From Longimicrobiales bacterium (GTDB lineage Bacteria > Gemmatimonadota > Gemmatimonadetes > Longimicrobiales > Gaopeijiaceae), in contig JBJKYO010000055.1 in NCBI GenBank assembly GCA_045561015.1, positions 1,131 through 65,130 on the forward strand: a stretch of 64,000 bases of DNA, in the 5' to 3' direction. Under the pieces are notes generated by a model that saw only the letters and a program-made list of their open reading frames with translations, was not told the DNA's origin and searched no databases. Below are positions 9,457 to 31,773 of the stretch, piece after piece. Numbering within the stretch: position 1 is the first letter of the stretch; every line of letters starts with the position of its first letter. Both the position numbers and the translations under genes were made by a program.

Positions 9457-9542
9457 TATTGCCTCCGAAACAGAAATAGAACCATAAGAACAAGATAACC
9501 TTTCCCTGGTATAATTTCACTTCCAAGAATAGATCAAACAGG

Positions 9543-10637: not shown

Positions 10638-10763
10638 TAGTCACTCCGAAGCAAAATTGACATTATTGTCATACAATAGGGTTAATCTTCTTTACAGTCA
10701 GGTGTATCTTTAGTGACAGCTCCATTATTTCACAAGAGAGAAACCCTAAAAGGCAACGACAGA

Positions 10764-11855: not shown

Positions 11856-11864
11856 GTAAGTATT

Positions 11865-11883
11865 TGTGAGCCCTTAGCTCACA
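11865..11883 (+). terminator. short hairpin after the alkaline phosphatase gene
   Basis: tgtgagc / gctcaca forms a 7-bp stem with a 5-nt loop, 10 nt after the stop codon. No U-tract follows, so this is weak. Confidence 0.3.
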
Positions 11884-12020
11884 GAAAACAATTGACTTGT
11901 CTTCTCTCAGCATTTTAAACAAACGTTTTAAATACTCTTCACCTTGCGCAAACACCCATGTCGAGTGGAAGTTGTGAGCAAATGTAGTGTTGTGGCAATG
12001 TAATCATGGGGAGAATTACT

Positions 12021-15650: not shown

Positions 15651-16664
15651 CTACCTTTTCAGTATTGTTCCTCCAAAAGGATCGGATCCTACATCATATC
15701 GATTTTCGATCTGCATACTGTCCATATCTATAATCACAACTTCACCTCCCCTAGGTGTCCCTCTATAAGAGATCTGGACATATAGTTTCTGACTGTCTGG
15801 TGAGAACAATGGAAAAGCAGATCCTGGAGCACCAAGGGGTATAGTCGCTACCACCTCTCTCGCATGTGCATCAATGATATGGACATCTTCTGTGCCGCCA
15901 CGAGTAGATGCCGCAAATCTTCCATCGGAAGAAACGTCGATACGACCCGGTCCTTCCCCTTCAGTTTGAATCACCTCAACAACCCCGTCAGTTTCCATAT
16001 CTATAACTGTCACCGAGCCATCGTAGTCGGAATGTATCCATGCCTCACCTTCTGGTGAAAATGCAACTCCAACTGGGCCTCCTTGAACTGGAATAATCTT
16101 AGTTACCTCGTCCGTTTCCGTATCTAGCACAACCACACGGTCATCCAGACGCATGGGATAGTACATCTTGTCTGTAGCGTGATTTATGGCCAGGAAATGG
16201 CCTCCTCTTAACAAAAGGTCAATTTTCTTGAGAACCTTCTGTTCAATAACATCATAAACGACAACACCAGGTATAGCATGGTTTTCTACACCTACATAGA
16301 GCTTACTACCGTCCCGATTCAAAGCTATCCCATGCGGAGAAGCAGAAGAAGACTCGAGAGGACCGTAGAAATACTCACTTTCAATCTTACCTAATTCAGT
16401 GAAAGTCTCAGTATCTAGGATTACAACATGTGGACCGTTTGGCACGGCTACAAACACAATACCACCATCCGATGTTGCAACACCTTCGTGAGGCTGATTT
16501 TCAGCCGTAAACTGATTAAGCACACCCAACGTCGGACTAACCTCATAAACAGTAAAATCTGAATGGCTGAGAGCAATGACTGAGTGTTCCTGAGCCTGAC
16601 ACGCTGTCATAGATAGTATGACTCCTGACAGCGTGAGAATAGTATTTCTAATCATCTTGTTCAC
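15651..16664 (-). CDS. YVTN-type beta-propeller lipoprotein
   Basis: Lipobox LSMTAC. Contains repeated ~40-aa units of the form 'G..P.G.A.S.DG..LYV.....V.V.D'. Confidence 0.7.
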   Translation of the reverse strand: MNKMIRNTILTLSGVILSMTACQAQEHSVIALSHSDFTVYEVSPTLGVLNQFTAENQPHEGVATSDGGIVFVAVPNGPHVVILDTETFTELGKIESEYFYGPLESSSASPHGIALNRDGSKLYVGVENHAIPGVVVYDVIEQKVLKKIDLLLRGGHFLAINHATDKMYYPMRLDDRVVVLDTETDEVTKIIPVQGGPVGVAFSPEGEAWIHSDYDGSVTVIDMETDGVVEVIQTEGEGPGRIDVSSDGRFAASTRGGTEDVHIIDAHAREVVATIPLGAPGSAFPLFSPDSQKLYVQISYRGTPRGGEVVIIDMDSMQIENRYDVGSDPFGGTILKR

Positions 16665-16772
16665 TTCTCCTTAACTGAAGCAGACACCCAGGAACTATTC
16701 CCGAAAACCTACCGTAACTGAGAATCAACCCCGAATATGCCAAGCCGACAATCTTTAAGAGCTAAGATTATA

Positions 16773-18569
16773 CTAACAGGACTGACAATTGTGATTGTTG
16801 ATGGATCCTAAGCCTTCAAGCAAAGCAATAGCTTCAGGGTATGGCTGTGTGCGCTGGTAAGGGCCATTGGCCATGTCGGCTGTCGTTTGACCCTCCCTAC
16901 TCACCGCCATCACATCGGCACCCTTCTCGACCAAATACTGTATCATGTCTGTATCACCTCTGGACGCAGCATGATGCACAGCAGTATAGCCCTGATAATC
17001 TCTAGCATTTACATCAGCGCCGATTTCTTCGACAAGGTACTTCATGGCATCCATCCAGCCAGCAGGCACATGTCGGTGTGAGTTTGCTGCGAACCCTTGT
17101 CCGTAGCCCACTCCAGAAGCCGCATGAATTGGGTAAACACCAGGCCCTCCCAAGGGAACTACCGGTAGACCAGATTGATCAGATTTCGCGTCTCCATCCC
17201 ACGCTGGGCGTCTGCGGTCTGGCATCCTCTGAGTTGCTACTTTTGGATCGGATCCATAAGAAACCAACATTTTCATAGCTTGTAAATCAACACCATAAGC
17301 TGCCCGCCAGAAAGGTGTGGCCCCTGTCATATTTACCCCTAAAAGACCTCTTCCATACGCCGTGTACCATAAGCGTTTTTTCAATCTTGCATTTGGATCA
17401 GCTCCGCTATCCAAAAACATTTTCATGAGTTCTAAATAACCAATTTCCTGCTGAAGATGGGCGTTTGGCTGCTGATACTGTGTCTTAGGAATCCATTGCT
17501 GATTAATCACAGCATATAACGGAGCGCCTCCAGCCTCATTGGCTAAATTGACATCCGCACCATTCTCCAGCAATTCAACCGCCAAATCGAAATGTCCATT
17601 TATAACAGCTATTAGTAACGGACTTGTTCTCTCAGCGTTTACCTGGTTCACATCTGCACCAGCATCCAACAAGGCTCTGACAGCTGATCTGTGACCCTGC
17701 CTTGCGGCATGCAAAAGAGCCGTCATCCCACCAACCTTTCCTATCTGCTCAGCACTGGTTAAGGGACGAGGTTCTTCTTTTTCCTCTGTTGATCCTTCTT
17801 TTCCTTCAACTGAAATATCGGAATTGAAATCATCGCATGCATAAGTGGTGGGACCACCTTGTTCTATCGTCAGTAACTTACCTCTCCTACCATCCGAACA
17901 GTCTTCCTCTTCCCCTTCCTCCATTGGTGCCGACGAAGATCCAACTGGATTTTCCTGCTTCTTCAGTAATTTGTCTTCAGCAACCATGTCTATTATTTCG
18001 GTCTGGATAGAAAGATCCGCACCCTTATCGGCCAAAATTTTGATGGCTCCCACTCTTCCCAAAGATGCGGCAAAAATTAGAGGAGTTTGTCCTGACTGCA
18101 TTTCTTTGTCATCTATAGAAGCTCCGTGGTCTATGAGTGCTTCAATACTCTTCACATCCCCAGAAGCGGCAGCAAAATGCAGAGAAGTAACCCCCCCGCT
18201 CGACGTTCTTTGATTGGGGTCACTTCCTGCTTTCAACAGACTGACAACCATGGGGGAATGGCCTTCTCTGCTAGCTAGGTGAAGAGGGGTATAAGCCCCC
18301 ATTCGAGTAGTTGCTTCGATACTGGCACCCGCATAAAGTAACATTTCAGCAATGTCTGACTGTCCATTAACAGCAGCCCAATGCAAAGCTGTCATTCCGT
18401 CGCCCTGTGCGGCATTAACGTCTGCACCTTGGTACAGCAGGTTCCGTAATACCTCCACGTCATTGCGCATAGCTGCGTCTGCAACAGGTGACTCAAGAAC
18501 ACCAGCACCCGTAAATACAATCGTCAAAAAGAATGTGGCAACTATACTCGAAAAACTTTTGTTTCTCAT
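16773..18569 (-). CDS. secreted ankyrin-repeat protein, cassette A
   Basis: 598 aa with a signal peptide (FFLTIVFTGAGVLESPVADAA). Many ANK units (G.TALHWAA..G......LL..GA..N). GGGAG SD 5 nt upstream. Starts 17 nt after the DUF1552-A stop. Confidence 0.85.
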   Translation of the reverse strand: MRNKSFSSIVATFFLTIVFTGAGVLESPVADAAMRNDVEVLRNLLYQGADVNAAQGDGMTALHWAAVNGQSDIAEMLLYAGASIEATTRMGAYTPLHLASREGHSPMVVSLLKAGSDPNQRTSSGGVTSLHFAAASGDVKSIEALIDHGASIDDKEMQSGQTPLIFAASLGRVGAIKILADKGADLSIQTEIIDMVAEDKLLKKQENPVGSSSAPMEEGEEEDCSDGRRGKLLTIEQGGPTTYACDDFNSDISVEGKEGSTEEKEEPRPLTSAEQIGKVGGMTALLHAARQGHRSAVRALLDAGADVNQVNAERTSPLLIAVINGHFDLAVELLENGADVNLANEAGGAPLYAVINQQWIPKTQYQQPNAHLQQEIGYLELMKMFLDSGADPNARLKKRLWYTAYGRGLLGVNMTGATPFWRAAYGVDLQAMKMLVSYGSDPKVATQRMPDRRRPAWDGDAKSDQSGLPVVPLGGPGVYPIHAASGVGYGQGFAANSHRHVPAGWMDAMKYLVEEIGADVNARDYQGYTAVHHAASRGDTDMIQYLVEKGADVMAVSREGQTTADMANGPYQRTQPYPEAIALLEGLGSINNHNCQSC

Positions 18570-18586
18570 TTTTTCTCCCTCATTCC

Positions 18587-20017
18587 TTAACTACGAGAAC
18601 CTGAATTATTCATTTCCGTCGTTGTCGCACCCATAGATAGAGGGAAAGCACCTGTGCTATCGCCAAAGCTCTCCATATCATCATGGCCCAAGGCATGTAG
18701 TAGACTTAGCATGACGTTAGCCGTAGGTGTCCCATCTGGAGCCTTCAGATGAAGATTCCCTTCAAGTTGCCCGTTGGCATGTCCGGCAAACAAAAGCGGA
18801 ATACGTCTATGGTTATGTACGTTCGGATCTCCCATCGGAGAACCATAAATAACTGCAGATTTATCAAGAAGATTGGAGTCTCCTTCCTGGGTACCCTTTA
18901 GTTTTTCCAAAAGGTGAGGAAGAAGACTTACGTGAAACTCATTCAGTCCAGCAAACTCTAGGATTACTTCTTCTTTGTTTCCATGGTGTGAAGTAGGATG
19001 GAACGGTAAATCGATTCCGCTCTCTGGGTAGACCCTGTTCAACGCATCCCTGGACAGTTTCAGCGAAAAGACTCTAGTCATGTCATTTTGAAAAGCCAAT
19101 GCTTGGAGATCAAACATGAGTTTGACGTGCTCTGAGAATGAATCGGGAACACCTGCCGGAGCTTCTGGCAATTCCCTTGCCTCTCCACTGGCATTTTGTG
19201 CCTCAATCTTTTGGATTCTTCTTTCAAGCTCTCTGACGTTCTCCAAATAGCTCTCTAATCGGATCCTGTCCTCAGGCCCTAAAGCTCTCGTTATTTCACC
19301 CACCTCACCAGCCACCCAATCTAGGATACTGCTATTCGCTCTTCTTCTTTCCGCACGTGCTTTAGGGGTCCCGCCCGCTCCGAAAAGCATATCGAAAGCT
19401 ACTCTGGGATCCCTTATCATTGGAAGGGGTTCGTTGGGAGATGCCCAACTTATTGTGTCAGTATATACACAAGCGTATCCATAAGAACATCCACCAGCTT
19501 GATCTACATTCTCAATACAAAACTGCATCGATGGAATTGGTGTGTCCTGCCCAAAACGGTTCGCAAACATTTGGTCGAGAGACATCCCCACCAACACATC
19601 AGACCCCTCAGTCTGTTTGGGATGCATTTGTGTCAAGAACACAGCACTGGATCGAAAATGATCTCCACCTATTTCGGGGGCTGAAAAAGCATCTGCATTT
19701 CTCATGTCTGTGTTACTGACGATTGTTAGGTAGTCCTGAAACGGTTCCAGAGGCTTTAAAACACTTGGACTTAAGTCGAAATCGCGCCCCTCTTCTGCTG
19801 GAGACCACAGATTCTGAGTTTCTCCCCATTCTGTACACCCTGCCGAACCATGCACAATCTCAATACATATTAATCGAGTCTTGTCGATCTCAGCAGATGA
19901 CTTCGACCAATGGCGCCCAGCTGGCACCATAGCATCGAGCAATGGTAGAGCAACACTGGCTCCTGCTCCACGCAGAAAAGTCCGGCGAGGCATATGTTTT
20001 TGGGTGATAAACTCCAT
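18587..20017 (-). CDS. TAT-exported DUF1552 (HXXSHH) family protein, cassette A
   Basis: Twin-arginine signal MPRRTFLRGAGASVALPLLDAM. Contains an HPTSHH motif. GAAGGAG SD upstream. Starts 24 nt after the DUF1592-A stop. Confidence 0.85.
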   Translation of the reverse strand: MEFITQKHMPRRTFLRGAGASVALPLLDAMVPAGRHWSKSSAEIDKTRLICIEIVHGSAGCTEWGETQNLWSPAEEGRDFDLSPSVLKPLEPFQDYLTIVSNTDMRNADAFSAPEIGGDHFRSSAVFLTQMHPKQTEGSDVLVGMSLDQMFANRFGQDTPIPSMQFCIENVDQAGGCSYGYACVYTDTISWASPNEPLPMIRDPRVAFDMLFGAGGTPKARAERRRANSSILDWVAGEVGEITRALGPEDRIRLESYLENVRELERRIQKIEAQNASGEARELPEAPAGVPDSFSEHVKLMFDLQALAFQNDMTRVFSLKLSRDALNRVYPESGIDLPFHPTSHHGNKEEVILEFAGLNEFHVSLLPHLLEKLKGTQEGDSNLLDKSAVIYGSPMGDPNVHNHRRIPLLFAGHANGQLEGNLHLKAPDGTPTANVMLSLLHALGHDDMESFGDSTGAFPLSMGATTTEMNNSGSRS

Positions 20018-20041
20018 AGTGTCATACTCCTTCAGAGGGAT

Positions 20042-22543
20042 CTAATTACTATTATTCTCAACTTCTTCTACAACCGTTTCTGTAGAAGCTTTCATTTGAA
20101 ATGCGTCACTATTAATCACACCTAGAATGAATGAAGACATTCTATACTCATTAGTTTTTGCAGCCTGTGTGATTTTTCTAATTGTCGGTTGGTCGAAGTA
20201 CTCCATCCTACGCCCAGTAGCGTAAGCCATAAGGTTGTTAGCAAATGTCCGAACAAATGGAATAGACTTGTTCAGCAGAGCCGTATGCAAATCAGAGGGA
20301 TTAGCCAAAGGCGTTCCGTCATAGAGCATTCCATTTGTGTCTAGCTCACTGCCATGTTCTCTAATTCTCCAAGTGCCTGTCACATCGAAATTATCCAAGG
20401 CTAGACCGATAGGATCCATGAACTGGTGGCAGGCGTTACATGTTGGATTCGCTCTATGTCTTTCCATCCTCTCTCGCGTTGTCAAAAATCTTCCGTCCTC
20501 TGTACCCTCAGTAGCAAGCAAGTCTGGGACATCCGGCGGAGGTGGCGGAGGTGGCGCATCTAGAAGGACTTCCATCACCCACTTCCCTCGTAAAACAGGA
20601 GAAGTCCTATGAGCCATGGAAGTCAGCATCAGTACACTTCCGTGACCCAGTATCCCACGTCTGTTATCATCGGGATAAGACACCCTGCGAAATGCATTTC
20701 CCGCCACACCAGGAATCCCATAGTGTTGAGCTAAGCGTTCGTTCAAGAATGTGTAGTCAGCGTTAAGTAATTCAAGAATACTCCTGTCTTCACGAACGAT
20801 ATTGTAGAAGAAAAGTTCGGTTTCCCGATACATCGCTTCCGATAAGGTCATATCGAAATATGGATAATCGTACACATTGGGAGAAACTTTTTCCAAGTCT
20901 TGAAGTCTCAACCACTGTGCTGCAAATCTTGTAGCCAAAGCCTCGGCACGCGGGTCACTCAACATCCTTTCTACGTGACCCTGGAGAACTTCTCGATTGG
21001 CAAGATCACCAGTTGAGACATCTTGCAACAACGGAGCGTCTGGCGGTGATCCCCAGAGGAAAAAAGAGAGTCTTGAAGCAAGAGCCAGTTGATCTATCCT
21101 GTATGGTTCTTCCCAGTCGACACCTTCTGGAGCTTCTTCAAACCGGAACACAAAATAAGGACTCGCTAGCATGGCCTGTAAAGCAAGCCTCACTCCTCTT
21201 TCGAAACCCCCTTCCTGAGCCCCTTCCTTATAGAAGCTCATCAAGTCACTAACCTCAGCCTCACTGACTGGACGCCGATAAGCTTCCGAAGAAAGTCGTG
21301 TCACGATATCTCTGGCACACCCTACTTCCTCTTGGAAAGTGGTTGGCCGACAAGTAAAAATGCTTTGTCGGCTAGATGTTTCGGAAACCCCAGTAACATT
21401 GTAAGGACCACTGACCGCCAGATCCCTTAGATGCGGGAGTGTGGTCAACATTTCCTCTGGGAATCCCTCTTGTACCGATCTACCTAGAGGAGCCCTCACT
21501 TCTTCCACTGGACCTTCAAATCTTGGAACGAATGCTGCAGCTATTTTCTTGGGACCAGCGCGAACAAAAATGGGTTCTGTCTCGATTCTAGTACTAGGGG
21601 GATCCGCGTACTCAGCTTCTGAAAGATCAATATCCAGAAGTGCAACTCGTTCACCATCAAAAGAGAGTTCTAGTTGTTCTCCAACAGCTCTTTTCCCCAC
21701 ACTCTGAAACTGGAACCAAAAAGTATATTCACCATCGGCCGGGAAGATATGTTCCGCAGCTACCCCACCCCTACTTCCAAAAGGTGTTCCTTCAACGTGG
21801 ACCATTTGAGAAGCACGTTTCTCCGCACTGTAAACTGTTTCGGTCGGAGTAACTTCACGGTCGCCAATCGCCAATCGACTGATCTCACTGGCCGCGGTCA
21901 GATAGGCCTCCAAAAGTGTTGGAGAAAGCATCTGAACATCTGCTATGTTATCGAAATTTGCACTTTTTGTGTCCAAAGGAAGATATTCCCCAACATCTAT
22001 TTGAAGCCCTAACAAATTTTTTATGGACTCGGTATACTCGGCCCGATTCAGACGCTGGAAAGTTCGACCACCAGGATTTGGATTCATTACGGCTTCCCGA
22101 TCCATTCTGGTCTCCAGCTCTTCTACCAGAGCTAACAAGGTATCTGGACTAGGCCTCGGCATGCCTGGTGGAGGCATCATACCAGCCCTCAATTTCCGAA
22201 TCATTTTCTCTGCTGTCTCAGGTCTGTTCGGAGCATTTTCAACTTCAAATCCAGCCAAAGAAAGATTTCCTGTCATCATCGCGTCGTTGTGACATACCTG
22301 ACAGTAAGTCTGAACGACTTCGGTCAATGTAGCAGCTTCGATTTCAAGACTGCCTGTAGAATGTGTCCCACCCAACTCAGATGAAACGTCCGATTCTGTC
22401 CTCTGTACATCAGAAATATCAGATTTAGACTGTACTAATACAGCCCCTTCGGTGTCTACCGAACGAGCATCAGCAACCTGTCCGACCATCACTAGAATTA
22501 GCCCGAAAACTATAGCCAAAACAGCAGTAACGGATCTTTTCAT
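20042..22543 (-). CDS. exported protein with two CxxCH motifs, PSCyt/PSD (DUF1585/1587/1588/1592/1595) family, cassette A
   Basis: 833 aa with Sec signal MKRSVTAVLAIVFGLILVMVGQVADA. CQVCH is encoded at 22289..22303. A PPPPPPPPDVP tract precedes CNACHQFMDPIG, with CNACH encoded at 20426..20440. Confidence 0.85.
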   Translation of the reverse strand: MKRSVTAVLAIVFGLILVMVGQVADARSVDTEGAVLVQSKSDISDVQRTESDVSSELGGTHSTGSLEIEAATLTEVVQTYCQVCHNDAMMTGNLSLAGFEVENAPNRPETAEKMIRKLRAGMMPPPGMPRPSPDTLLALVEELETRMDREAVMNPNPGGRTFQRLNRAEYTESIKNLLGLQIDVGEYLPLDTKSANFDNIADVQMLSPTLLEAYLTAASEISRLAIGDREVTPTETVYSAEKRASQMVHVEGTPFGSRGGVAAEHIFPADGEYTFWFQFQSVGKRAVGEQLELSFDGERVALLDIDLSEAEYADPPSTRIETEPIFVRAGPKKIAAAFVPRFEGPVEEVRAPLGRSVQEGFPEEMLTTLPHLRDLAVSGPYNVTGVSETSSRQSIFTCRPTTFQEEVGCARDIVTRLSSEAYRRPVSEAEVSDLMSFYKEGAQEGGFERGVRLALQAMLASPYFVFRFEEAPEGVDWEEPYRIDQLALASRLSFFLWGSPPDAPLLQDVSTGDLANREVLQGHVERMLSDPRAEALATRFAAQWLRLQDLEKVSPNVYDYPYFDMTLSEAMYRETELFFYNIVREDRSILELLNADYTFLNERLAQHYGIPGVAGNAFRRVSYPDDNRRGILGHGSVLMLTSMAHRTSPVLRGKWVMEVLLDAPPPPPPPDVPDLLATEGTEDGRFLTTRERMERHRANPTCNACHQFMDPIGLALDNFDVTGTWRIREHGSELDTNGMLYDGTPLANPSDLHTALLNKSIPFVRTFANNLMAYATGRRMEYFDQPTIRKITQAAKTNEYRMSSFILGVINSDAFQMKASTETVVEEVENNSN

Positions 22544-22720
22544 CTAAAATCTCCCTATTGACTTGTGTGTCAACGAATTACCCGAAAGGAAGCCAAATTT
22601 CTGCCCCGATTTCTGATCACCCAACAAGTCCAAGCTCAAACAGGAACCACTCCACCATGAAAACTAGCATGCTCACGCCATCCTAGCCAGGATAAAGCAA
22701 CTCCCAAACTGAGCTTTGGG
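22071..22720. repeat. 650-bp near-identical duplicate, copy 1 (partner 29625..30274)
   Basis: My base-by-base comparison found only 2 mismatches (22115, 22116), at a constant offset of 7554 bp. It covers codons 1 to about 158 of the DUF1592-type gene plus 177 bp upstream. Confidence 0.95.
22677..22700 (-). promoter_or_regulatory. conserved palindrome-containing motif gccatcctaSccaggataaaRcaa
   Basis: ATCCT-N4-AGGAT core. The same 24-mer occurs at 30231..30254, and a 22/24 match occurs at 35079..35102. All three are intergenic. Confidence 0.3.
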
Positions 22721-22733
22721 AGGGGGGATTTGA

Positions 22734-24158
22734 TCAATATGGTAGAAAATAAAGTGCCGCAGCTAAAAACGGGAATAGCAAAATCATCATCGTTATCCCA
22801 TATCCAAACATATCCCTCGCCTTAAGTCCGGTAATCGCTAACAAGGGTATCGCCCAGAACGGATTCAACAAATTGGTGTGCGCATCTCCCACAGCATAAG
22901 CAGCTATAGTTTGACCATGCGGTATGCCAAGCTCTGATCCTGCAAGCAACATAGGACCTCCAACTATAGCCCATTCACCTCCGGCAGACGGAACGAATAC
23001 GTTCAGCACTCCACCTGTAAGCCACGCTGTCACAGCGAAGTTTTCTTCCGTAGCGATGGAGAGCAAAGCTTCGGTCATACTGTCCACCAAACCAGTTCCA
23101 GTCATAATCCCAATAATTCCAGCATAGAAGGGGAACTGCAGTATTACACCAGCGCTCCCTTTCACAGCATCATTAAATTCTTGCTCATATTTTGCTGGAC
23201 TCAAATACAAAACCATACCGATCATGATGAAACCGAAATTGAAAACATTCAGATCTAGAGCACCTAGGCCGTCTTTGACAAAAGCTCCCACAAAGAGTGC
23301 AATACCCGTTACAGCAACGATGCCGCCCAGCAATTTAGAATTATCCAGCCGGTCGGAGGGTGTTAACCTCTTCTCTTCCTTATTATCTAAACTACTTCGA
23401 TGACTATCTAACTCCATGTAGCGCTCTATACCTCTGCAATTAGCTGCTGGAGGAGCAAGTAGGTACATCATTAAAGATGCATAGGCCATAGAAAGAACCG
23501 TTAACAGTAATGGGTAGGAATGGAAAACCCATTCTGTAGCCGGAATCACCCTGTCTACAATGCCCTGCAACATAAACACATTACCGTCAGTAGCCTGCAA
23601 AAGACCTGCAGAACTTGATAGGCCCCAACCCCAAGTGAGACTCATACCCATGTAGCCAGCTACAGCTATAAGTGGGTAGTGCACTGCCATACCTTTTTCC
23701 GCAGCTGCCTTCCCCATTTCTCTTGCAAGAATAGCACCAAAAATCAGTCCCAATCCCCACGAGATCCAACCCACAATCATCGATCCGATCCCTACAAGAA
23801 CGACAGCCTGTCGACCATTTTGGGGTAACGATACCAGTCGTTTGATTCCCGAGAGCACTGTGGGGTGATAGGCTACTACAAATCCCGTCACTAATATAAT
23901 CACCATTTGCATGGCAAATTGAAGTAAATTCCAGAAACCTCCGTACCAAGCAAGTGCTATATCTACAGGATTTGAACCTTCTGACAGAAAAGCTGCCAAA
24001 CCTGCTACATAGGTAAGTATGATCGCAAAGACAAATGGACTCGGCATCCATCTTTCGACCCGATCAGCTATCGCCTCTCCAAACCGCTGAACCCACGTTA
24101 GCTGCGGATCGGTATGATTACCTTGGTCGTTCTGCTGCTCCAATGCTTCAAATTCCAT
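22734..24158 (-). CDS. AtoE-family short-chain fatty acid / carboxylate transporter
   Basis: 474-aa polytopic protein. WYGGFWNLLQFAMQMVIILVTGFVVA resembles E. coli AtoE WGDGFWNLLAFGMQMALIIVTGHALA as I recall it. Its start overlaps the ankyrin-B stop by 11 nt. Confidence 0.8.
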   Translation of the reverse strand: MEFEALEQQNDQGNHTDPQLTWVQRFGEAIADRVERWMPSPFVFAIILTYVAGLAAFLSEGSNPVDIALAWYGGFWNLLQFAMQMVIILVTGFVVAYHPTVLSGIKRLVSLPQNGRQAVVLVGIGSMIVGWISWGLGLIFGAILAREMGKAAAEKGMAVHYPLIAVAGYMGMSLTWGWGLSSSAGLLQATDGNVFMLQGIVDRVIPATEWVFHSYPLLLTVLSMAYASLMMYLLAPPAANCRGIERYMELDSHRSSLDNKEEKRLTPSDRLDNSKLLGGIVAVTGIALFVGAFVKDGLGALDLNVFNFGFIMIGMVLYLSPAKYEQEFNDAVKGSAGVILQFPFYAGIIGIMTGTGLVDSMTEALLSIATEENFAVTAWLTGGVLNVFVPSAGGEWAIVGGPMLLAGSELGIPHGQTIAAYAVGDAHTNLLNPFWAIPLLAITGLKARDMFGYGITMMILLFPFLAAALYFLPY

Positions 24159-26175
24159 CGAAATTTTCAGTTCCTGGTCTTAAAACAGAACTGTTTGGAA
24201 GCTCATCATCGTCAACAGGAGGCTTGTTGGGTGATTCCTCTTCCTCAGTAGTCACCCTCCACGGATCTATCTCACCAGCCCTTGGACATGAATCTCCAGT
24301 ATCCAAAAAATGAGTATGGAGACATTCCAAAGTAGATCCCAAATCCTGTAACAGTTCCACTGTCTCGGGAAATGCTACTCTAGTGAAAAAACCTGCCCGA
24401 CCGCCTCGCGCCATATCTGCTGTCGATTGACCCAGTCGCGTTATCACCTTTACATCACCACCTTGTGAGACCAAGTATTCGATCAGTTCATTATCACCCC
24501 TTGAAGCGGCATAATGCATCGGTGTGTACCCCCAGGAATCTAGGGTATTTACATCTATTCCATGTTCTTCAACCAAATATTTTACAGCAGGTATGAAGCT
24601 CCCGGGAACGGTTCTGATGCTGAATGATCCGAGACCAGTAAAACCTCCACCTGCAGCAGCATGAATGGGGTAGGCATTAAAAGCATTCTTCGGGATATAC
24701 GGCAGTCCAGAATCTTCTTGTTGCCTTCCATCCTGCTGCCGTCTTTCTCTCATTTCCGGAGCTGGCCAAGCGGTCGGTATGTTAGGGTCAGCCCCATACT
24801 CCGACATCATTGCCATCGCTTCGACATCCTGAGCGTACGCAGCACGCCAAAAAGGAGTGGCGCCCCTTAGATCCGTCCCGATTTTAGTGAGTCCATATTC
24901 CCAATACCAAAGATGAGTATTAAGACTGACATTCGGATCAGCTCCCGCCTCTAACAAAGCACTAAGTAGCTCCAGGTATTCCGTTTCCTGCATATCCTGA
25001 GCTCTTGGTTGCGGGTAATTAGATTTCGGTGCCCACTGGGTTTGCAGAACTGCAAACAAAGGATTCGAACCATCAGTATTCGCTGACAGGTTAGGATCCG
25101 CACCCTCTTCTACCAAGATCATCGCCAAATCAAACTGTCCATTGAGAGCCGCTATCAAAAGAGGGCTTGTCTCGTCACCCCCACTGACCTGGTCGATATC
25201 TGCCCCCCCTTCTATAAGACTCATAGCTACTTCTGTATTGCCTTCTCTTGCTGCATGCAGCAAGGCAGTCATCCCACCCGTCTTTCCTACCAATGTTTCA
25301 CGATATGGCGGTCTTGGAAGATCAGGCCCTCCTGGATAGTCTGGACGATAACTGATCAAATTTTCTGGAAGATAATCACGGTAAGGTTCTCCAGATTTCA
25401 AAAACTCTCGTTGCGCCTGAATAGCAGCCTGTACCTCAGCAACACTGGGTTCTTTGTTCCCACTAGCACTATTTGTATTTACGTAATCCCCACTTGCATC
25501 CATTACTCGGCTATTATTGATATACTCGGAGAGTTCATTCCTCAAAAAACGACTTGCCTGCTGATCTGCCAATACATGTTGGAGTACATCTACAATCACC
25601 GTGGAAACGTTCGGATCCGCGCCATGAGCCAAAAGCAACTCAGCTGACTCAGTCCTATTCTTAGCCGCAGCGAACATCAGTGGGGTTTGGCCTGCTGAGG
25701 ATTCCCTAGCGTTCGGATCCGCGCCATGAGCCAAAAGCAACTCAACTGCCGCGCCACCGCCTACGACTTGTGCTGCCAAATGCAAGGCTGTGGCAAAGCT
25801 ACTAGATGTGACTGCATCCACATCCGCCCCTGCTTCCAGTAATTTCCCAACAACGACATAGTGTGCTTTTCCGCTTGCCAAATGAAGGGGAGTATATTCG
25901 CCAATTCTAGTTGTTGGATTCACTTCAGCCTGAGCAGCCAAAAGCAACTCAACGATCCTTTCGTGACCTGATTGAGCAGCAATGTGAAGTGGTGTCAAAC
26001 CATCTCCAGTCACCTCATTCACATCTGCACCACCCTCTATCAGAGCCATAACAGCCTCAACATCGGCCAATCTCGTCGCCTCAATCAAAGGCGAATCGGA
26101 AGCCGTCGTCCATCCCAAAAACAGTGCAGAAAAGACGAAAACGCTCGCAAAGCGGATGTTTCTTCCAATGTTCAT
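24148..26175 (-). CDS. secreted ankyrin-repeat protein, cassette B
   Basis: The ORF track starts at GTG 26178. ATG 26175 gives MNIGRNIRFASVFVFSALFLGWTTA (signal). It overlaps the DUF1552-B stop by 1 nt (TGATG). Architecture matches the cassette A ankyrin, plus an acidic C-terminal tail. Confidence 0.85.
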   Translation of the reverse strand: MNIGRNIRFASVFVFSALFLGWTTASDSPLIEATRLADVEAVMALIEGGADVNEVTGDGLTPLHIAAQSGHERIVELLLAAQAEVNPTTRIGEYTPLHLASGKAHYVVVGKLLEAGADVDAVTSSSFATALHLAAQVVGGGAAVELLLAHGADPNARESSAGQTPLMFAAAKNRTESAELLLAHGADPNVSTVIVDVLQHVLADQQASRFLRNELSEYINNSRVMDASGDYVNTNSASGNKEPSVAEVQAAIQAQREFLKSGEPYRDYLPENLISYRPDYPGGPDLPRPPYRETLVGKTGGMTALLHAAREGNTEVAMSLIEGGADIDQVSGGDETSPLLIAALNGQFDLAMILVEEGADPNLSANTDGSNPLFAVLQTQWAPKSNYPQPRAQDMQETEYLELLSALLEAGADPNVSLNTHLWYWEYGLTKIGTDLRGATPFWRAAYAQDVEAMAMMSEYGADPNIPTAWPAPEMRERRQQDGRQQEDSGLPYIPKNAFNAYPIHAAAGGGFTGLGSFSIRTVPGSFIPAVKYLVEEHGIDVNTLDSWGYTPMHYAASRGDNELIEYLVSQGGDVKVITRLGQSTADMARGGRAGFFTRVAFPETVELLQDLGSTLECLHTHFLDTGDSCPRAGEIDPWRVTTEEEESPNKPPVDDDELPNSSVLRPGTENFDGI
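25609..25744. repeat. intragenic 34-nt exact direct repeat, two copies 102 nt apart
   Basis: gttcggatccgcgccatgagccaaaagcaactca occurs at 25609..25642 and 25711..25744. On the minus strand both encode ELLLAHGADPN of adjacent ankyrin units. Confidence 0.85.
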
Positions 26176-27596
26176 CACTGAGTTCCCCCCGTTGACGTCA
26201 CTCCTCGTGGAGCCGTCAAAACCAAACTGCCGTCACTATCTCCGAAACTTTCCATGTCGTGGCCTATACCCTGCATTAGCGTAACAAAGGCATTGGCCAT
26301 CGGTGTTCCTTCAGGGGCTCCAATATGAACACCCCCTTCCAGGGCACCATTTGCACCTCCCATAAGGAGTAGTGGACATCTCCGGTGGTTATGTAAGTTT
26401 GGGTCTCCCATAGGAGAACCCCAGACGATAGCAGTTTTATCTAGCAAGGAACCGTCCCCATCCATAGTATTCTTCATTTTTTCTAAGAAATACGCGACAG
26501 ACCCTAAGCGGTAGGTATTGATCTTGTGGAAATCCATAATGTCATCGGCAATATTACCATGATGTGAGGCTCCGTGGATAGACTTAGTAGTTCCACTCTT
26601 CGGGAAGGTCCTATTAGACTGATCAAAGCCTGTTTTAAAGCTGATCACTCGAGTCATATCTGTCTGTAAAGCCAGAACCTGAAGGTCAAACATGAGCTGC
26701 ATATGCTCTTCCCAAGAATCTGGAATTCCTGATGGAGCTTCTGGCATCTCACGCTCTTCCCCACTTACATTTCGGGCTTCCATCAGCTGGATTCTGCGCT
26801 CGATCTCACGTACATGCTGTAAATATTCATCCATGGCAAGTCTGTCCGCTGCCCCTAGAGATGTTCTCAGTCGAGCGACTTCGGTAACGATCCAATCCAG
26901 CATGCTCTGATCTGTCCGTCTCCTTTCACTTCTATCTTTTTCTGAATCTCCAGCTCCAAACAGTCTTTCAAACACAGCTCTCGGTTCTCTGATAGCAGGA
27001 AGAGGTTGGTTAGGAGAAGACCAAGCCAAAGAAGTGGTATAAGCACAATGATAATTGTAGGCACAACCACCACCGCGATCTATCTCTTCTACACAGAGCT
27101 CGAGAGACGGTAGAACCGTGTCCTGCCCGAATCTCTGTGCATGTACCTGATCCAAAGACGTGCCAAGGAAGATGTCTGATCCCTGAGTTTGCTTAGGATG
27201 AGCCTGAGTTAAGAACACGGCCGTCGAACGATCGTGGTCACCTCCGATTTCTTCAACTCTATAAGCTTCAGCCATACGACAATCGGTGGAACTCACGATG
27301 GTAAGATAATCTCTGTAAGCTTCGAGTGGTTTCAACTGACTATCAGCTTCCAAAGTAAAATCCCTACCTGTTTCTGCTGGAGCAAAAAGATGTCTTTCAT
27401 CCCCCCAATCACTTCCTCCTGCACAACCCATTGATTCTTCGATACATACCATTCGCGTTTGCTTTGCTTCCACCGAACTATCCTTCCATGGACGCCCAGC
27501 TGGAACCATAGCATCCAAGAAAGGTAGTGCTATACCAGCACCCATACCGCCGACAAAAGTTCTTCGTGAAAGATGTTTACCTGTGATGAATTCCAT
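26175..27596 (-). CDS. TAT-exported DUF1552 (HXXSHH) family protein, cassette B
   Basis: Twin-arginine signal LSRRTFVGGMGAGIALPFLDAM. Contains an HGASHH motif. Its start overlaps the DUF1592-B stop by 1 nt (TAATG). Confidence 0.85.
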   Translation of the reverse strand: MEFITGKHLSRRTFVGGMGAGIALPFLDAMVPAGRPWKDSSVEAKQTRMVCIEESMGCAGGSDWGDERHLFAPAETGRDFTLEADSQLKPLEAYRDYLTIVSSTDCRMAEAYRVEEIGGDHDRSTAVFLTQAHPKQTQGSDIFLGTSLDQVHAQRFGQDTVLPSLELCVEEIDRGGGCAYNYHCAYTTSLAWSSPNQPLPAIREPRAVFERLFGAGDSEKDRSERRRTDQSMLDWIVTEVARLRTSLGAADRLAMDEYLQHVREIERRIQLMEARNVSGEEREMPEAPSGIPDSWEEHMQLMFDLQVLALQTDMTRVISFKTGFDQSNRTFPKSGTTKSIHGASHHGNIADDIMDFHKINTYRLGSVAYFLEKMKNTMDGDGSLLDKTAIVWGSPMGDPNLHNHRRCPLLLMGGANGALEGGVHIGAPEGTPMANAFVTLMQGIGHDMESFGDSDGSLVLTAPRGVTSTGGTQ

Positions 27597-30097
27597 TATT
27601 TATACTCCTCGTTCAAATCCGCGACTGACATAGGAACCTGCATCATCTGGAATGGACTGCTATTCACCACTCCCAAAATGAAAGAGGACATACTATAGTC
27701 ATCCACTTCAGCTTCTCTGACAATTTTTCGCACCGTTGGCTGATCAAAATATTCAATCCGTCTACCCATCGCATAAGCCAACAGGTTGGCTGTAAAACTA
27801 CGCATGATAGGAATTGGCCTCTTTGCAACAACTTCATTTAGATCCATCGGAGTATTAAGAGACGTCCCATCATAATACGTTCCCGCAGTATCTAATTCTC
27901 TACCGTATTCTCTCATTCTCCAGCTACCTGTCACATCGAAATTATCCAGGGCTAGACCGATAGGATCCATGAACTGGTGGCAGGCGTTACACGTTGGATT
28001 CGCCCTGTGTCTCTCCAATCTCTCTCGAGTTGTAAGGAATCTCCCGTCTTCAGTACCTTCAGTCGCATCTAGGAAGGGTACATCTGGTGGTGGTGGTGGT
28101 GGTGGTGAACCCATAATAACTTCCATCACCCACTTTCCTCGCAACACAGGTGAAGTTCTGTTGGACATCGAGGTCAACATAAGAACACTTCCGTGCCCGA
28201 GCAGGCCCCTGCGGGTCTCATCTGTATAATTGACCCGTTGAAATTCATCGCCCACGATTCCATCTATTCCATAGTGTTCAGCGAGCCTCTGATTGACAAA
28301 TGTGTAGTCTGCTGAAACCATCTCCAGCACACTCCTGTCCTCCCTTATCAAATTCTCGAAAAACATCTGTGTTTCTCGAATCATATCTTCTTTTAATTGT
28401 CCTGTAAAATCAGGATATAAGTAGGGCTCTGGTTCATTTTTGCCAGCTTCCTGCAATCGCAACCATTGCGAGGCAAAACTCGTAGCCAAATTCTGAGAAC
28501 GCGGATCCGAGAGCATCCTTAAAACCTGGCTTTCTAAGACTTTCGGATCAGACAGTTTTCCTTCGTTGGCCAACTCTCTCAACTGATCGTCGGGACCCGA
28601 ACCCCATATGAAAAATGATATACGTGAGGCTAAATCGCTGTCGTTCAGGCGATAGAGCTGCCCTTCATAGGCATTCTCTGGCTGTTCCTCAAACCTAAAC
28701 AGGAACGAAGGATTAGCCAGAATACTCTGCAATCCAGTCCTAACACCTACTTCAAACCCAGATTCTTTTGCAGCTCTATCGTAAAATTCCATTGGTCCAG
28801 CAAGGTCTTCTTCTGTTATTGTCCGTCGATATGCTTGGGCAGCGATCCGTGAAATGATCTGCTCCGCACATTCATACTCTTCATTCTCCGTATCTGGATA
28901 GCAAGAAAAAACCTTTTCCCTACTTGCTGTTTTGGATACTGGCCCAGAACTGACAGGACCAGTGATCATCAGATCAGCTAAATGCGGAAGAGCGGTAATG
29001 CCATAGTTAGCCCACTGCTGCGCATCCTCGCCCCCTACAAACGACCATTTAAATGGACTTAGACGATCCTCGTAAGGCCCCTCTATCCGTCTCACAAACG
29101 CTGCTGCAACCTGATGTTGACCAGCAGAGACAAAGATGGGATCAGTTCGAATGTCTACAGTTTTATCACCATTATGTTCGAGTGCGAGCTGAGCCACCCC
29201 CACTCCGTCAATCGAAATATCCAGATCCTGCCCAGACAATCCTTTACCAAAAAGAGTTTCTATCGAAATGACATACTCTCCGTCTGTAGGGAAATCATGC
29301 CTGACTACCATACCTCCTCTTGTACCAAAAGGAGTGCCCTCCAAATGATCCCATGAATGTTGAGAAACATGTATAGGGTTAGTGTACTTCGAAGAAACAG
29401 ACAAAGCCTCTGGATTTCCTACTGCAATGCGACTAACCTCCGCCGCCGCCCTCAAGTACGATTCTAAGAGAGTAGTAGAAAGTCCTTGCGCAGCGGAAAG
29501 GTTATTAAAATTTCCTAAGAAAGTGTCTTCTGGAAGCCAGCGACTCGCGTCTATTTCCAACTCAAGAAGCTGACGTACACTTTTTTCGTATTCAGCTCTA
29601 GTTAATCTCTGGAATCTTCTGGATCCAGGATTTGGATTCATTACGGCTTCCCGATCCACCCTGGTCTCCAGCTCTTCTACCAGAGCTAACAAGGTATCTG
29701 GACTAGGCCTCGGCATGCCTGGTGGAGGCATCATACCAGCCCTCAATTTCCGAATCATTTTCTCTGCTGTCTCAGGTCTGTTCGGAGCATTTTCAACTTC
29801 AAATCCAGCCAAAGAAAGATTTCCTGTCATCATCGCGTCGTTGTGACATACCTGACAGTAAGTCTGAACGACTTCGGTCAATGTAGCAGCTTCGATTTCA
29901 AGACTGCCTGTAGAATGTGTCCCACCCAACTCAGATGAAACGTCCGATTCTGTCCTCTGTACATCAGAAATATCAGATTTAGACTGTACTAATACAGCCC
30001 CTTCGGTGTCTACCGAACGAGCATCAGCAACCTGTCCGACCATCACTAGAATTAGCCCGAAAACTATAGCCAAAACAGCAGTAACGGATCTTTTCAT
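27596..30097 (-). CDS. exported protein with two CxxCH motifs, PSCyt/PSD (DUF1592-type) family, cassette B
   Basis: 833 aa. The first ~158 aa match copy A except for M147V. CQVCH and CNACHQFMDPIG are both present, along with a poly-Pro tract. Confidence 0.85.
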   Translation of the reverse strand: MKRSVTAVLAIVFGLILVMVGQVADARSVDTEGAVLVQSKSDISDVQRTESDVSSELGGTHSTGSLEIEAATLTEVVQTYCQVCHNDAMMTGNLSLAGFEVENAPNRPETAEKMIRKLRAGMMPPPGMPRPSPDTLLALVEELETRVDREAVMNPNPGSRRFQRLTRAEYEKSVRQLLELEIDASRWLPEDTFLGNFNNLSAAQGLSTTLLESYLRAAAEVSRIAVGNPEALSVSSKYTNPIHVSQHSWDHLEGTPFGTRGGMVVRHDFPTDGEYVISIETLFGKGLSGQDLDISIDGVGVAQLALEHNGDKTVDIRTDPIFVSAGQHQVAAAFVRRIEGPYEDRLSPFKWSFVGGEDAQQWANYGITALPHLADLMITGPVSSGPVSKTASREKVFSCYPDTENEEYECAEQIISRIAAQAYRRTITEEDLAGPMEFYDRAAKESGFEVGVRTGLQSILANPSFLFRFEEQPENAYEGQLYRLNDSDLASRISFFIWGSGPDDQLRELANEGKLSDPKVLESQVLRMLSDPRSQNLATSFASQWLRLQEAGKNEPEPYLYPDFTGQLKEDMIRETQMFFENLIREDRSVLEMVSADYTFVNQRLAEHYGIDGIVGDEFQRVNYTDETRRGLLGHGSVLMLTSMSNRTSPVLRGKWVMEVIMGSPPPPPPPDVPFLDATEGTEDGRFLTTRERLERHRANPTCNACHQFMDPIGLALDNFDVTGSWRMREYGRELDTAGTYYDGTSLNTPMDLNEVVAKRPIPIMRSFTANLLAYAMGRRIEYFDQPTVRKIVREAEVDDYSMSSFILGVVNSSPFQMMQVPMSVADLNEEYK
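28085..28105. repeat. (TGG)7 microsatellite, (CCA)7 on the coding strand
   Basis: Seven perfect trinucleotide units encode the poly-Pro tract of DUF1592-B. The same tract in copy A uses mixed codons (ggcggaggtggcggaggtgg). Confidence 0.9.
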
Positions 30098-30274
30098 CTA
30101 AAATCTCCCTATTGACTTGTGTGTCAACGAATTACCCGAAAGGAAGCCAAATTTCTGCCCCGATTTCTGATCACCCAACAAGTCCAAGCTCAAACAGGAA
30201 CCACTCCACCATGAAAACTAGCATGCTCACGCCATCCTAGCCAGGATAAAGCAACTCCCAAACTGAGCTTTGGG
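29625..30274. repeat. 650-bp near-identical duplicate, copy 2 (partner 22071..22720)
   Basis: See copy 1. Identity ends exactly at a cccaaa-N6-tttggg hairpin (30257..30274). Confidence 0.95.
30231..30254 (-). promoter_or_regulatory. conserved palindrome-containing motif, second copy
   Basis: Identical to 22677..22700 and lies inside the 650-bp duplicate. Confidence 0.3.
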
Positions 30275-30376
30275 GACCCTTGTGGACCCAACCAAAAGAC
30301 TCGGGTACAAGTCGATAGCATACAAAAGATTAGGAATCCATTGTGAGCCAAACACTCTATGACCAGAAGATCCGGA

Positions 30377-31771
30377 CTAACTAATCAACCGCAGGTGCTG
30401 TCTCACCTTTTCCATGTACTTTTGAAAGAAGTGATATTGTATATTGTTCATGTCTATCTCACGACCTTGGATATAAGACTGTTCAATATTACTGGTCATG
30501 TCCAAAGGCGTACCTGTAGTAATTAGTAAAGTGGCCTGCTTCCCAGGTTCTAGGGATCCAACCCTGTCACTTATTCCCATGAACTCTGCAGCGTTTATGG
30601 TCACCGCCCTTAGAGCTTCTTCTTCAGGAAGTCCGAAAGCCACAGCAACACCTGCTTCCCATGGAAGTCGGTCCGAATACAAGGACCCTGAGCCACCCGA
30701 TATAGCGAACTTTACACCTGCTGTGTAAAGTCGCGCTGGCATACTGTATGCTCCGTCATATCCCTCATAATCTCGACCGGGTGCAGCCATAGTTGAGGTT
30801 AAAATTACCGGAATATCTTCAGCCACTAATCTATCCGACACGTGGATAGCATCAGCCCCACCGCGAATCACTATTCGCAAGCCTTCCTTTTGAGCCCAAG
30901 TAATTGCATCGTTGATTTGCCCAGCACCGTCAGCTGAGATCACTACAGGAATGTCCCCATCTAGAGCTGGGATCATCGCTGCATAACGTGAATCCGTTCG
31001 CATTTCCATACCAGCCACCGCAGCATCACGATAAGCTCTTGCTTCCGCAAAAAAATCATCGAGCTGCTGGATCTGTTCACCGTAAGTCGGGGGAGGCTCC
31101 TGTGGATTCGGACCAAAGCCACGTCCTCTTCCTCTGCCAGGATTTGGGTTTGGCCAGTTCACATTTAATGCCGCCGCGGATTCAAGAGACATTTCCTCCC
31201 AATCCCATCCCTCTAAACTCATTGCTGATGACATACCCGAAATCAGGCCACCCTCTGGTGTCGTCAGAGTCACAAGGACTCCAGCTGCACGAGTCGTACC
31301 TATATGACGACTCTCTGCATTGACTGCAACTTCAGCCCTGACATTGGGATTAAAGTCGCCCAGCTCGTTGACATCACTTGATACGCCAACAGCTCCGATT
31401 TCACTTATTCCTACTGTGCTATAGGCATCGATTAGTCCTGGATAGATGTGCTTCCCAGAGACGTCTATAACCTTAGTCCCACTAGGCAGGGTTATGTCCG
31501 TTCCAACCGCGCTAATCAAACCATTTTCCATTAAGATGGTACCGTTTTCAATCACTCCGGCTGTAACGGTATGGATGGTAGCCCCACTTAATGCCACTGG
31601 TTCCGATTGCGGAGGGACGGTCATTCGCACCTGTCCCATAGCGGCAGTCGGTGACAACATGATGACAACCCAGGTTAATGAACTCACTGCCAACATGGTA
31701 GCAGCGACAGTACGAACCATCTCTACATAGTTTTTCATATTTCCTCTTATAGTCGTCACATTCATAGTCAT
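30377..31771 (-). CDS. COG1228-type amidohydrolase-fold protein with a degenerate metal motif
   Basis: 464 aa with a signal/TM segment. Amidohydrolase-like N-terminus (IHTVTAGVIENGTILMENGLISAVG). The strand-1 motif reads PGLIDAYSTVG instead of HxH. Contains the loop PNPNPGRGRGRGFGPNPQ (31100..31153). Starts 2 nt after the stop of the upstream 1014-aa gene. Confidence 0.8.
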   Translation of the reverse strand: MTMNVTTIRGNMKNYVEMVRTVAATMLAVSSLTWVVIMLSPTAAMGQVRMTVPPQSEPVALSGATIHTVTAGVIENGTILMENGLISAVGTDITLPSGTKVIDVSGKHIYPGLIDAYSTVGISEIGAVGVSSDVNELGDFNPNVRAEVAVNAESRHIGTTRAAGVLVTLTTPEGGLISGMSSAMSLEGWDWEEMSLESAAALNVNWPNPNPGRGRGRGFGPNPQEPPPTYGEQIQQLDDFFAEARAYRDAAVAGMEMRTDSRYAAMIPALDGDIPVVISADGAGQINDAITWAQKEGLRIVIRGGADAIHVSDRLVAEDIPVILTSTMAAPGRDYEGYDGAYSMPARLYTAGVKFAISGGSGSLYSDRLPWEAGVAVAFGLPEEEALRAVTINAAEFMGISDRVGSLEPGKQATLLITTGTPLDMTSNIEQSYIQGREIDMNNIQYHFFQKYMEKVRQHLRLIS

Positions 31772-31773
31772 AA

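Follow-up and report, generated by a model that had tools for sequence, protein, structure and literature searches.

Comparison with other genomes shows that two tandem cassettes on contig JBJKYO010000055.1, from the metagenome-assembled genome (MAG) of a marine Longimicrobiales bacterium (Gemmatimonadota), are each one copy of a conserved, co-inherited module of three genes, the products of which all have predicted export signals. The module, which we call the trio, encodes a DUF1592-type cytochrome (D), a DUF1552 protein (H), and an ankyrin-repeat protein (K). The gene neighbourhoods of homologues strongly support the view that K is a genuine, conserved component of the module and that its position is no matter of chance. 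The sequences suggest, with a probability that we put at about 0.6, that the whole package forms a haem-linked metalloenzyme in the periplasm, of which the ankyrin is a structural subunit. Our confidence in the conserved three-gene module itself is much higher.

The trios lie between positions 16773 and 30274 of the window, i.e., of the whole stretch of 64,000 nucleotides (nt) that was analysed. Seven back-to-back open reading frames (ORFs) occupy the minus strand throughout this region. The D, H, and K genes are numbered 1 to 3 in cassette A (upstream) and in cassette B (downstream), with lengths given in amino acids (aa):

27596-30097, minus strand: A1, putative exported two-haem DUF1592-type protein, 833 aa
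26175-27596, minus strand: A2, DUF1552/HXXSHH protein with a twin-arginine signal, 473 aa
24148-26175, minus strand: A3, ankyrin-repeat protein with a predicted export signal, 675 aa when read from the ATG
22734-24158, minus strand: AtoE-like short-chain fatty acid transporter, 474 aa (Pfam SCFA_trans, E-value 3e-117)
20042-22543, minus strand: B1, second DUF1592-type two-haem protein, 833 aa
18587-20017, minus strand: B2, second DUF1552/HXXSHH protein, 476 aa
16773-18569, minus strand: B3, second ankyrin-repeat protein with a predicted export signal, 598 aa

The coordinates and strand of the six trio ORFs are exactly those of the original prediction, and the Pfam search agreed with its family assignments (PSCyt/PSD, DUF1552/HXXSHH, ankyrin, and AtoE-like). 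The motifs that it named are all present, i.e., CQVCH, a second CxxCH after a poly-proline tract, the twin arginines, and HGASHH and HPTSHH, and so are the gene junctions that it described. The latter are TAATG and TGATG in cassette A, where the ATG of A3 overlaps the A2 stop codon by 1 nt, and gaps of 24 and 17 nt with GGAG-type Shine-Dalgarno sequences (GAAGGAG and GAGGGAG) in cassette B. An alternative GTG start one codon upstream would give A3 676 aa and an end at 26178. The window proteins are NCBI entries MFL2545101-MFL2545107 (A3 is MFL2545105.1), and close relatives of them are present in Tara Oceans data.

The ankyrin is constant in a large clade

In both cassettes an ankyrin ORF with a signal-like N-terminus adjoins the DUF1592-DUF1552 pair on the same strand, which is how we define the trio. 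We surveyed about 165 loci (labelled L001, L027, etc.) that were fetched with DUF1552 or ankyrin queries. They were translated in six frames and searched with the window proteins, and the extent of an ankyrin was taken as the union of all BLAST segments. Using a 12-sequence DUF1552 alignment, we scanned one genome of each species and obtained 79 loci, whose H proteins share 49-79% identity with A2. More distant DUF1552 proteins served as seeds for a scan of metagenomes, which yielded 80 loci whose H proteins share 36-58% identity with those of the window. In the genome loci the ankyrin ORF came right after H wherever the downstream DNA sufficed, and in the metagenome loci it lay downstream of H or upstream of D. 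The neighbourhoods of three ankyrin homologues all had the order DUF1592 - DUF1552 - ankyrin, with the ankyrin start overlapping the DUF1552 stop, and a further locus of the A type (closer to cassette A than to B) also showed the trio arrangement.

The tally comprised 129 loci with the order D-H-K, 16 with H-K and the upstream side cut off, and 8 with K-D-H. Ten cases without downstream room were uninformative, as were nine with nothing downstream and the upstream side cut off. The trio was thus found in 153 of the 155 informative cases elsewhere, and the other two, initially scored as lacking an ankyrin, have simple explanations: in L080 the ankyrin had been missed (9447-11378), and in L151 it is divergently oriented, upstream. 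Almost all ankyrin ORFs in the surveyed loci touched D or H (162 of 163), and a single ankyrin occurred among 889 other flanking ORFs. Six distant trio ankyrins were verified by Pfam. The commonest spacings between H and K were -4 and -1 nt. The identity matrices of D, H, and K from 95 complete trios correlate pairwise (r 0.89-0.93), which speaks for co-inheritance. Hence, the suggestion that the ankyrin is a real third component was borne out, since it adjoins the pair in every informative case.

We found the trio in Gemmatimonadota, Acidobacteriota, Gamma- and Alphaproteobacteria, and Kiritimatiellia, and also on a Novosphingobium megaplasmid (H 39% identical), namely NZ_CP117882.1 of the cultured Novosphingobium sp. 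KACC 22771, at about 943.3-948.5 kb. Two trio contigs were binned as Bifidobacteriaceae (L009) and Acidimicrobiia (L068), probably in error because all other carriers belong to Gram-negative lineages. Often two or three paralogous trios stand in tandem, as in L027, L033, L041, L043, L048, L052, L070, and L072, each copy with its own ankyrin. The gene order varies in a few loci, with a duplicated DUF1552 gene (D-H-H-K) in L013 (1281-5957) and L106 (2465-6643), and the order H-K-D in L031 (8001-13872).

The original prediction assigned the first two genes to a widespread pair, but the ankyrin does not accompany this pair throughout. It is present where the DUF1552 protein shares about 36% identity or more with those of the window. 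The three more distant D-H pairs that were inspected, in Planctomyces sp. SH-PL62 (DUF1552 protein 31% identical), Chondrinema litorale (29%), and Sphingobium herbicidovorans (23%), are without it, so that the ankyrin characterises a large clade rather than the family as a whole. With three negative pairs, the identity boundary for its presence (between about 31% and 36% to A2) is rough.

Two old lineages and a recent exchange between them

The cassettes had been described as two diverged tandem copies with paralogues 50-60% identical. They are indeed in tandem and diverged, and the figure suits the DUF1552 proteins (A2 and B2 are 56% identical). The global identity of A1 and B1 (62%) is inflated by their first 148 residues, which are identical, and the ankyrins A3 and B3 are only 37-43% identical. 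The copies are nevertheless not the product of a recent local duplication. Trios of Gammaproteobacteria, Kiritimatiellia, and an acidobacterial MAG are far closer to the A trio of the window (D 75-85%, H 75-84%, K 62-78% identical) than is the neighbouring B trio, and A2 orthologues elsewhere reach 75-92% identity. The best matches of the B-type proteins are in other Gemmatimonadota and in Acidobacteriota, e.g., L027 (57-74%), and B-type orthologues of B3 are 45-57% identical to it. A search with A2 in a library clustered at 50% identity returned 12,685 related clusters (E-value ≤ 0.001), of which the top two were the A type (74%) and the B type (59%), with the rest at 43% or less. Since both trios are closer to copies in other phyla than to each other, they represent two old lineages. 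The whole trio, including the ankyrin, was thus duplicated anciently and has probably moved between phyla as a unit.

Superimposed on this old divergence is a perfect direct repeat of 614 nt, which the original prediction had not mentioned, with its two copies at an offset of 7554:

29661..30274, minus strand: repeat copy 1, 177-nt leader and first 437 nt of A1
22107..22720, minus strand: repeat copy 2, 177-nt leader and first 437 nt of B1

The repeat spans the first 146 codons of A1 and B1, and position 30274, at which the studied region ends, is the exact edge of copy 1. Past the repeat edge, the identity between A1 and B1 falls at once to the level of the remaining gene. The shared N-terminus of D is of the A type (93% identical to L004 and L005, 88% to L001), and after residue 148 the best match of B1 is the B-type protein of L027 (70%). 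It follows from the A-type character of the shared N-terminus that the exchange was late, and recent gene conversion from A1 into B1 is the simplest reading of these patterns. Alternatively, the cassettes might stem from a tandem duplication that happened recently in this genome and took the ankyrin along as a passenger gene. This would also explain their tandem position, their common orientation, and the perfect identity of their 5' ends over 614 nt. We find this hardly credible, because outside the repeat the copies are only 40-56% identical, each has closer relatives in other phyla, and the two types fall in separate clusters of the 50%-identity library. Furthermore, the A-type N-terminus identifies the repeat as a later conversion, and about 150 independent loci contain the ankyrin.

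Faulty assembly of the window does not account for the repeat. The same arrangement was found in independent assemblies, and others break at the repeat edges: L171 and L176 start at its first base, and L177 and L181 about 50 nt before its end. A scaffold gap lies inside the A copy in L170, and the perfect identity of the interior is given as read in the assembly of the window. A terminator-like hairpin (CCCAAAGCTCAGTTTGGG) stands at the 5' edge of the repeat. An Rfam scan of 16000-31000 revealed nothing in the shared leader, and a promoter scan returned sites no more frequently than in shuffled sequence.

The putative exported cytochrome

The D proteins match the DUF1592-type set of Pfam families (PF07626, PF07637, PF07631, PF07627, and PF07624). 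In both A1 and B1 the matches follow the order PSD3, PSD5, PSD4, PSCyt3, and PSD2, with scores of 61-153 bits against gathering scores of 23-34. They also match Cytochrome_CBB3 at residues 70-140 with 26.2-26.4 bits, just under the cut-off of 27. The full domain order of A1 is a Sec signal, a class-I-like cytochrome c domain, PSD3, a CBM6/35-like β-sandwich, PSD5, PSD4, PSCyt3, and PSD2. Two haem-binding motifs were located:

29843..29857, minus strand: first haem-binding motif, CQVCH, A1 residues 81-85
27977..27991, minus strand: second haem-binding motif, CNACH, A1 residues 703-707, in PSCyt3 after a run of eight prolines

Residues C81, C84, H85, M123-P124, C703, C706, and H707 are invariant in an alignment of 83 sequences, and M123-P124 probably provides the sixth haem ligand. 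Among the trios, the first CxxCH is present in about 90 of 95, the remaining five rows being gapped at the motif, and the second is kept in all the motif variants listed.

In an AlphaFold2 model of D (mean predicted local distance difference test score, pLDDT, of 80.9), the signal peptide and a disordered linker are followed by a haem domain that is small and helical, by a β-sandwich (about 234-384), and by a large body, also helical, in which the second CxxCH sits. The β-sandwich is the sole part for which Foldseek found neighbours in the PDB. These are CBM6/35/36 jelly rolls, with E-values of 2.5e-3 to 2e-2 and target-normalised template modelling (TM) scores of 0.5-0.6. It is also the least conserved folded domain, with a mean column conservation of 0.50 and 40% identity between A1 and B1. 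The most conserved is PSCyt3 (0.74 and 88%). An NCBIfam search revealed no family for D.

The DUF1552 protein

A2 and B2 match HXXSHH/DUF1552 (PF07586) with 276-280 bits against a cut-off of 30 (E-values 4.5e-82 and 5.2e-83, respectively). In a Pfam search with H at E-values up to 10 we found no second family and no match to the sulfatases (PF00884), and NCBIfam held no family for it. Two motifs were located:

27561..27566, minus strand: twin-arginine codons, A2 residues R11-R12, in the motif SRRTF (A2) or PRRTF (B2)
26559..26576, minus strand: HGASHH motif, A2 residues 341-346 (HPTSHH at this position in B2)

The twin arginines are kept in at least 95% of 95 sequences, and the Pfam TAT_signal model matched B2 only, with 17 bits against a cut-off of 22.7. 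The arginines are followed by an LPLLDAMxPA segment (window 27495-27566, A2 residues 11-34), also found in B2. At least 95% of the 95 sequences agree at R11, R12, L24, P25, L27, M30, P32, and A33, which is far above what cleaved signal peptides usually show, and the segment may be an uncleaved signal-anchor of the twin-arginine translocation (TAT) pathway or a recognition element.

The same level of conservation was found for H341, S344, H345, and H346 of the HxxSHH motif, for the histidines at 121, 298, 402, and 424, for seven acidic residues (D141, D149, D234, D251, D304, D386, and E266), and for the cysteines 178 and 184. The pattern of histidines, acidic residues, and cysteines suggests a metal site. 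The model of A2 (mean pLDDT 85.9) was compared with the PDB using Foldseek. Its best matches were type I sulfatases and other proteins of the alkaline-phosphatase superfamily such as LtaS and YejM, with a probability of about 1.0, E-values of 2e-4 to 1e-2, TM scores of 0.3-0.4, about 10% identity, and root-mean-square deviations of 8-20 Å. Hence, H is predicted to have a distant alkaline-phosphatase/sulfatase-like fold. The residues after its first β-strand vary among the 95 sequences, which have no conserved pair of aspartate and nucleophile there.

The ankyrin-repeat protein

Both A3 and B3 match Pfam Ank families (PF00023, PF12796) above the gathering score, with E-values of 5.6e-63 and 1.2e-66. 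Trio ankyrins have 450-680 aa and about 12 repeats in two lobes: an N-terminal lobe of about five repeats is followed by a variable linker of about 100 residues and by a C-terminal lobe with long inserts. Full-length homologues of A3 with 64-80% identity were found in Pseudohongiellaceae, Halioglobus, Pseudomonadales, Kiritimatiellia, and Gemmatimonadota. A search of NCBIfam with K gave only generic ankyrin matches far under the cut-offs, and a tblastn search of plasmids with the ankyrin at E-values up to 1e-20 gave no match. A signal-like N-terminus, i.e., positive charge and a hydrophobic stretch directly before the first repeat, is present in 124 of 129 trio ankyrins, which suggests that K is exported to the periplasm. 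The separate export of the three proteins, as originally proposed, fits the conserved signal-like N-termini.

Neighbouring genes

There is no conserved fourth gene, the best flanking family being present in 17 of the approximately 165 loci. The AtoE-like transporter starts with an ATG 11 nt before the stop codon of A3. This overlap makes its co-transcription with cassette A probable. It is not part of the conserved module: it was found on contigs of the same species only and is absent from other trio loci. Two genes follow B3 on the same strand. One encodes a YncE-like seven-bladed β-propeller protein (15651-16664, minus strand) without homologues at other trio loci, and the other a secreted DUF5818 protein (14983-15612, minus strand) with homologues just upstream of the trio in L040 and L055. 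Further on, the plus strand of the window (10713-13924) encodes an alkaline phosphatase of 380 aa, a sulfite-oxidase-type molybdoenzyme of 424 aa, and a cytochrome c of 215 aa. According to the Pfam labels of these genes, which come from a contig of the same species (L169), the molybdoenzyme has the domains Oxidored_molyb and Mo-co_dimer. Together with the cytochrome c it resembles a sulfite dehydrogenase of the SorAB kind.

Directly upstream of cassette A are genes for two exported amidohydrolases of 464 and 1014 aa (30377-34818, minus strand). Amidohydrolases also adjoin the trios of L172 and L173 and of eight other loci, e.g., L011 (13540-16578). A-type trios of different taxa have a divergent gene upstream, which encodes an NHL/SBBP-repeat protein of about 400 aa (L001 2877-4109, L004 4558-5763, L005 2521-3726, and L172 4660-5865).

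Some loci encode additional cytochromes. A cytochrome c of about 247 aa directly follows the ankyrin in L102 (10842-11585), L147 (2937-3749), L094 (4759-5607), and L122 (10892-11728), which makes a four-gene version of the trio. In L102 and L122 this cytochrome is followed by a TonB-dependent-receptor-like gene, and such genes occur after the trio in about 10% of the loci (including L089, L105, and L131). The ankyrin-less operon of Sphingobium herbicidovorans, on plasmid pMSHV (L168 4373-8519), encodes a DUF1592 protein, a DUF1552 protein, a cytochrome c', and a cytochrome b561. Its DUF1592 protein has 536 aa and is without the N-terminal haem domain and the β-sandwich. We regard this operon as the clearest hint of electron transfer to the membrane.

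Relation to known systems

The uncharacterised pair formed by PSCyt3/PSD proteins (DUF1585/1587/1588/1592/1595) and DUF1552 proteins has been noted, e.g., in freshwater Verrucomicrobia (PMC5615132). In Planctomycetes, Verrucomicrobia, and others it comprises the same Pfam families in the same order, with D immediately upstream of H (annotated examples are those of Planctomyces sp. SH-PL62 and Chondrinema litorale). In comparison, the trio clade adds an exported ankyrin of 450-680 aa and often has multiple copies in tandem. A literature search with the DUF and PSCyt family names returned no functional study, and none of the few papers naming PSCyt or DUF1552 families couples them with an ankyrin. 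Hence, the ankyrin as third partner of the DUF1592-DUF1552 pair is apparently undescribed.

The katB-ankB operon of Pseudomonas aeruginosa reportedly encodes a catalase and, directly downstream, an exported ankyrin that supports it. The trio is similar in that the gene of an exported ankyrin comes directly after that of an exported or periplasm-related haem enzyme. However, the cassettes encode no catalase, the neighbours of the ankyrin being the DUF1592 and DUF1552 proteins. They also differ in that the predicted haem is covalent and c-type instead of haem b, and in a third partner with a TAT signal. AnkB has about 180 aa, and the two-lobed trio ankyrins are three to four times longer. The Pfam and NCBIfam searches with the trio proteins revealed no sequence relationship beyond generic ankyrin repeats. 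The katB-ankB operon is thus an analogy only.

The predicted core fold of H is similar to that of the alkaline-phosphatase superfamily (type I sulfatases, LtaS, and YejM/PbgA). Yet, H has no conserved nucleophile motif and no sequence-level link to this superfamily in Pfam or the PDB, and it differs from its members by a twin-arginine signal and an obligate cytochrome partner. There is also a parallel pair in which a 'planctomycete-specific cytochrome' of the PSCyt1/PSCyt2/PSD1 families (DUF1549/DUF1553) stands beside a TAT-signal protein, DUF1501. The Pfam families differ from those of the trio, and the DUF1501 protein presumably has a sulfatase-like fold. This pair is likewise uncharacterised (PMC5615132).

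A putative periplasmic enzyme

In the enzyme that we propose, D, H, and K would meet in the periplasm and form a single complex. H would be its catalytic, metal-binding subunit, D would supply or remove electrons through its two c-haems and select the substrate with its β-sandwich, and K, a structural subunit present in stoichiometric amounts, would clamp or stabilise the other two. The A and B trios would be old paralogues, probably with different substrates, to which the recent A-to-B conversion gave the same leader, signal peptide, and first haem domain. Because they share the leader, their expression is probably regulated alike. In favour of the proposal are the constant adjacency of the ankyrin, the conserved export signals and motifs, the co-inheritance of the three proteins, the fold resemblances of H and of the β-sandwich of D, and the redox genes beside related operons. 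As to the parts of this proposal, we see about even odds that K is a permanent subunit, and the same for a redox reaction. In its most specific form the trio would be a new class of periplasmic three-subunit enzyme, in which the ankyrin is an obligate subunit of a haem-c-linked metalloenzyme and the variable CBM-like domain of D sets the substrate range of each paralogous trio. This we hold only tentatively, at less than an even chance.

Several observations weigh against a haem-linked metalloenzyme with an ankyrin subunit. Tightly linked genes are expected to diverge in step, and the correlated identities of D, H, and K are by themselves no proof of contact. K evolves somewhat faster than its partners, with a mean pairwise identity of 0.42 (0.49 for D and 0.52 for H), and no binding surface can be named on it because its conserved positions in the alignment are mainly residues of the repeat framework. 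Since the distant D-H pairs do without an ankyrin, the basic chemistry does not require one. At TM 0.3-0.4, H matches the alkaline-phosphatase fold weakly, and any reaction class given to it is tentative. The formylglycine motif of sulfatases (C/S-x-P/A-x-R; CxPxR) is not found in A2, nor is one conserved across the 95 H sequences. Finally, sequence and profile searches of the PDB with D and with H returned chance-level matches only.

Some of these observations would suit an ankyrin that acts as a dedicated periplasmic maturation or stability factor and not as a permanent subunit, by analogy with AnkB and the catalase KatB. Such a factor would serve full activity or the protection of the haem protein. 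The gene position is the same as in katB-ankB, the exported ankyrin coming just after a haem enzyme. Moreover, the distant D-H pairs do without the ankyrin, and it diverges faster than D and H. We nevertheless consider this role somewhat unlikely. At 450-680 aa, with two lobes and about 12 repeats, the trio ankyrins are much larger than AnkB. A stoichiometric partner also fits better with the 62-78% identity of A-type ankyrins across phyla, and with the overlapping stop and start codons, which suggest near-equal synthesis.

The module might also be non-redox. H would then belong to the alkaline-phosphatase superfamily as a hydrolase or transferase, and its imported substrate would resemble a sugar or a phosphate or sulfate ester. 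The haems of D would have a structural or sensory role, and the ankyrin would serve as an adaptor that links the module to other envelope proteins, e.g., TonB-dependent receptors. The resemblance of the H fold to sulfatases, LtaS, and YejM is in line with this, as are the CBM-like domain in D, the TonB-dependent-receptor-like genes after the trio in several loci, and an earlier suggestion that ties PSCyt proteins to carbohydrate use (PMC5615132). We judge such a module quite improbable, given that H has no sulfatase nucleophile motif and varies after the first β-strand, and that the TonB link concerns only about 10% of the loci. Moreover, two invariant CxxCH motifs and an invariant Met-Pro are kept over the whole clade, and the extra cytochromes c, c', and b561 in related operons point to electron transfer.

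Significance

The DUF1592-DUF1552 family is very large and has expanded in several environmentally dominant phyla. The constant presence of an exported ankyrin in a large clade of this family defines a coherent three-component system and provides a handle for biochemistry. It also widens the known roles of bacterial ankyrins, which to our knowledge have mostly been studied as effectors of pathogens and symbionts. Should the most specific form of the proposed enzyme be confirmed, bacterial ankyrins would also have a housekeeping function in the metabolism of soil and marine bacteria that live freely, apart from host interaction. The tandem arrays of paralogous trios and the variability of their CBM-like domain point to a family of enzymes with diversified substrates, which would be relevant to carbon turnover in soil and ocean.

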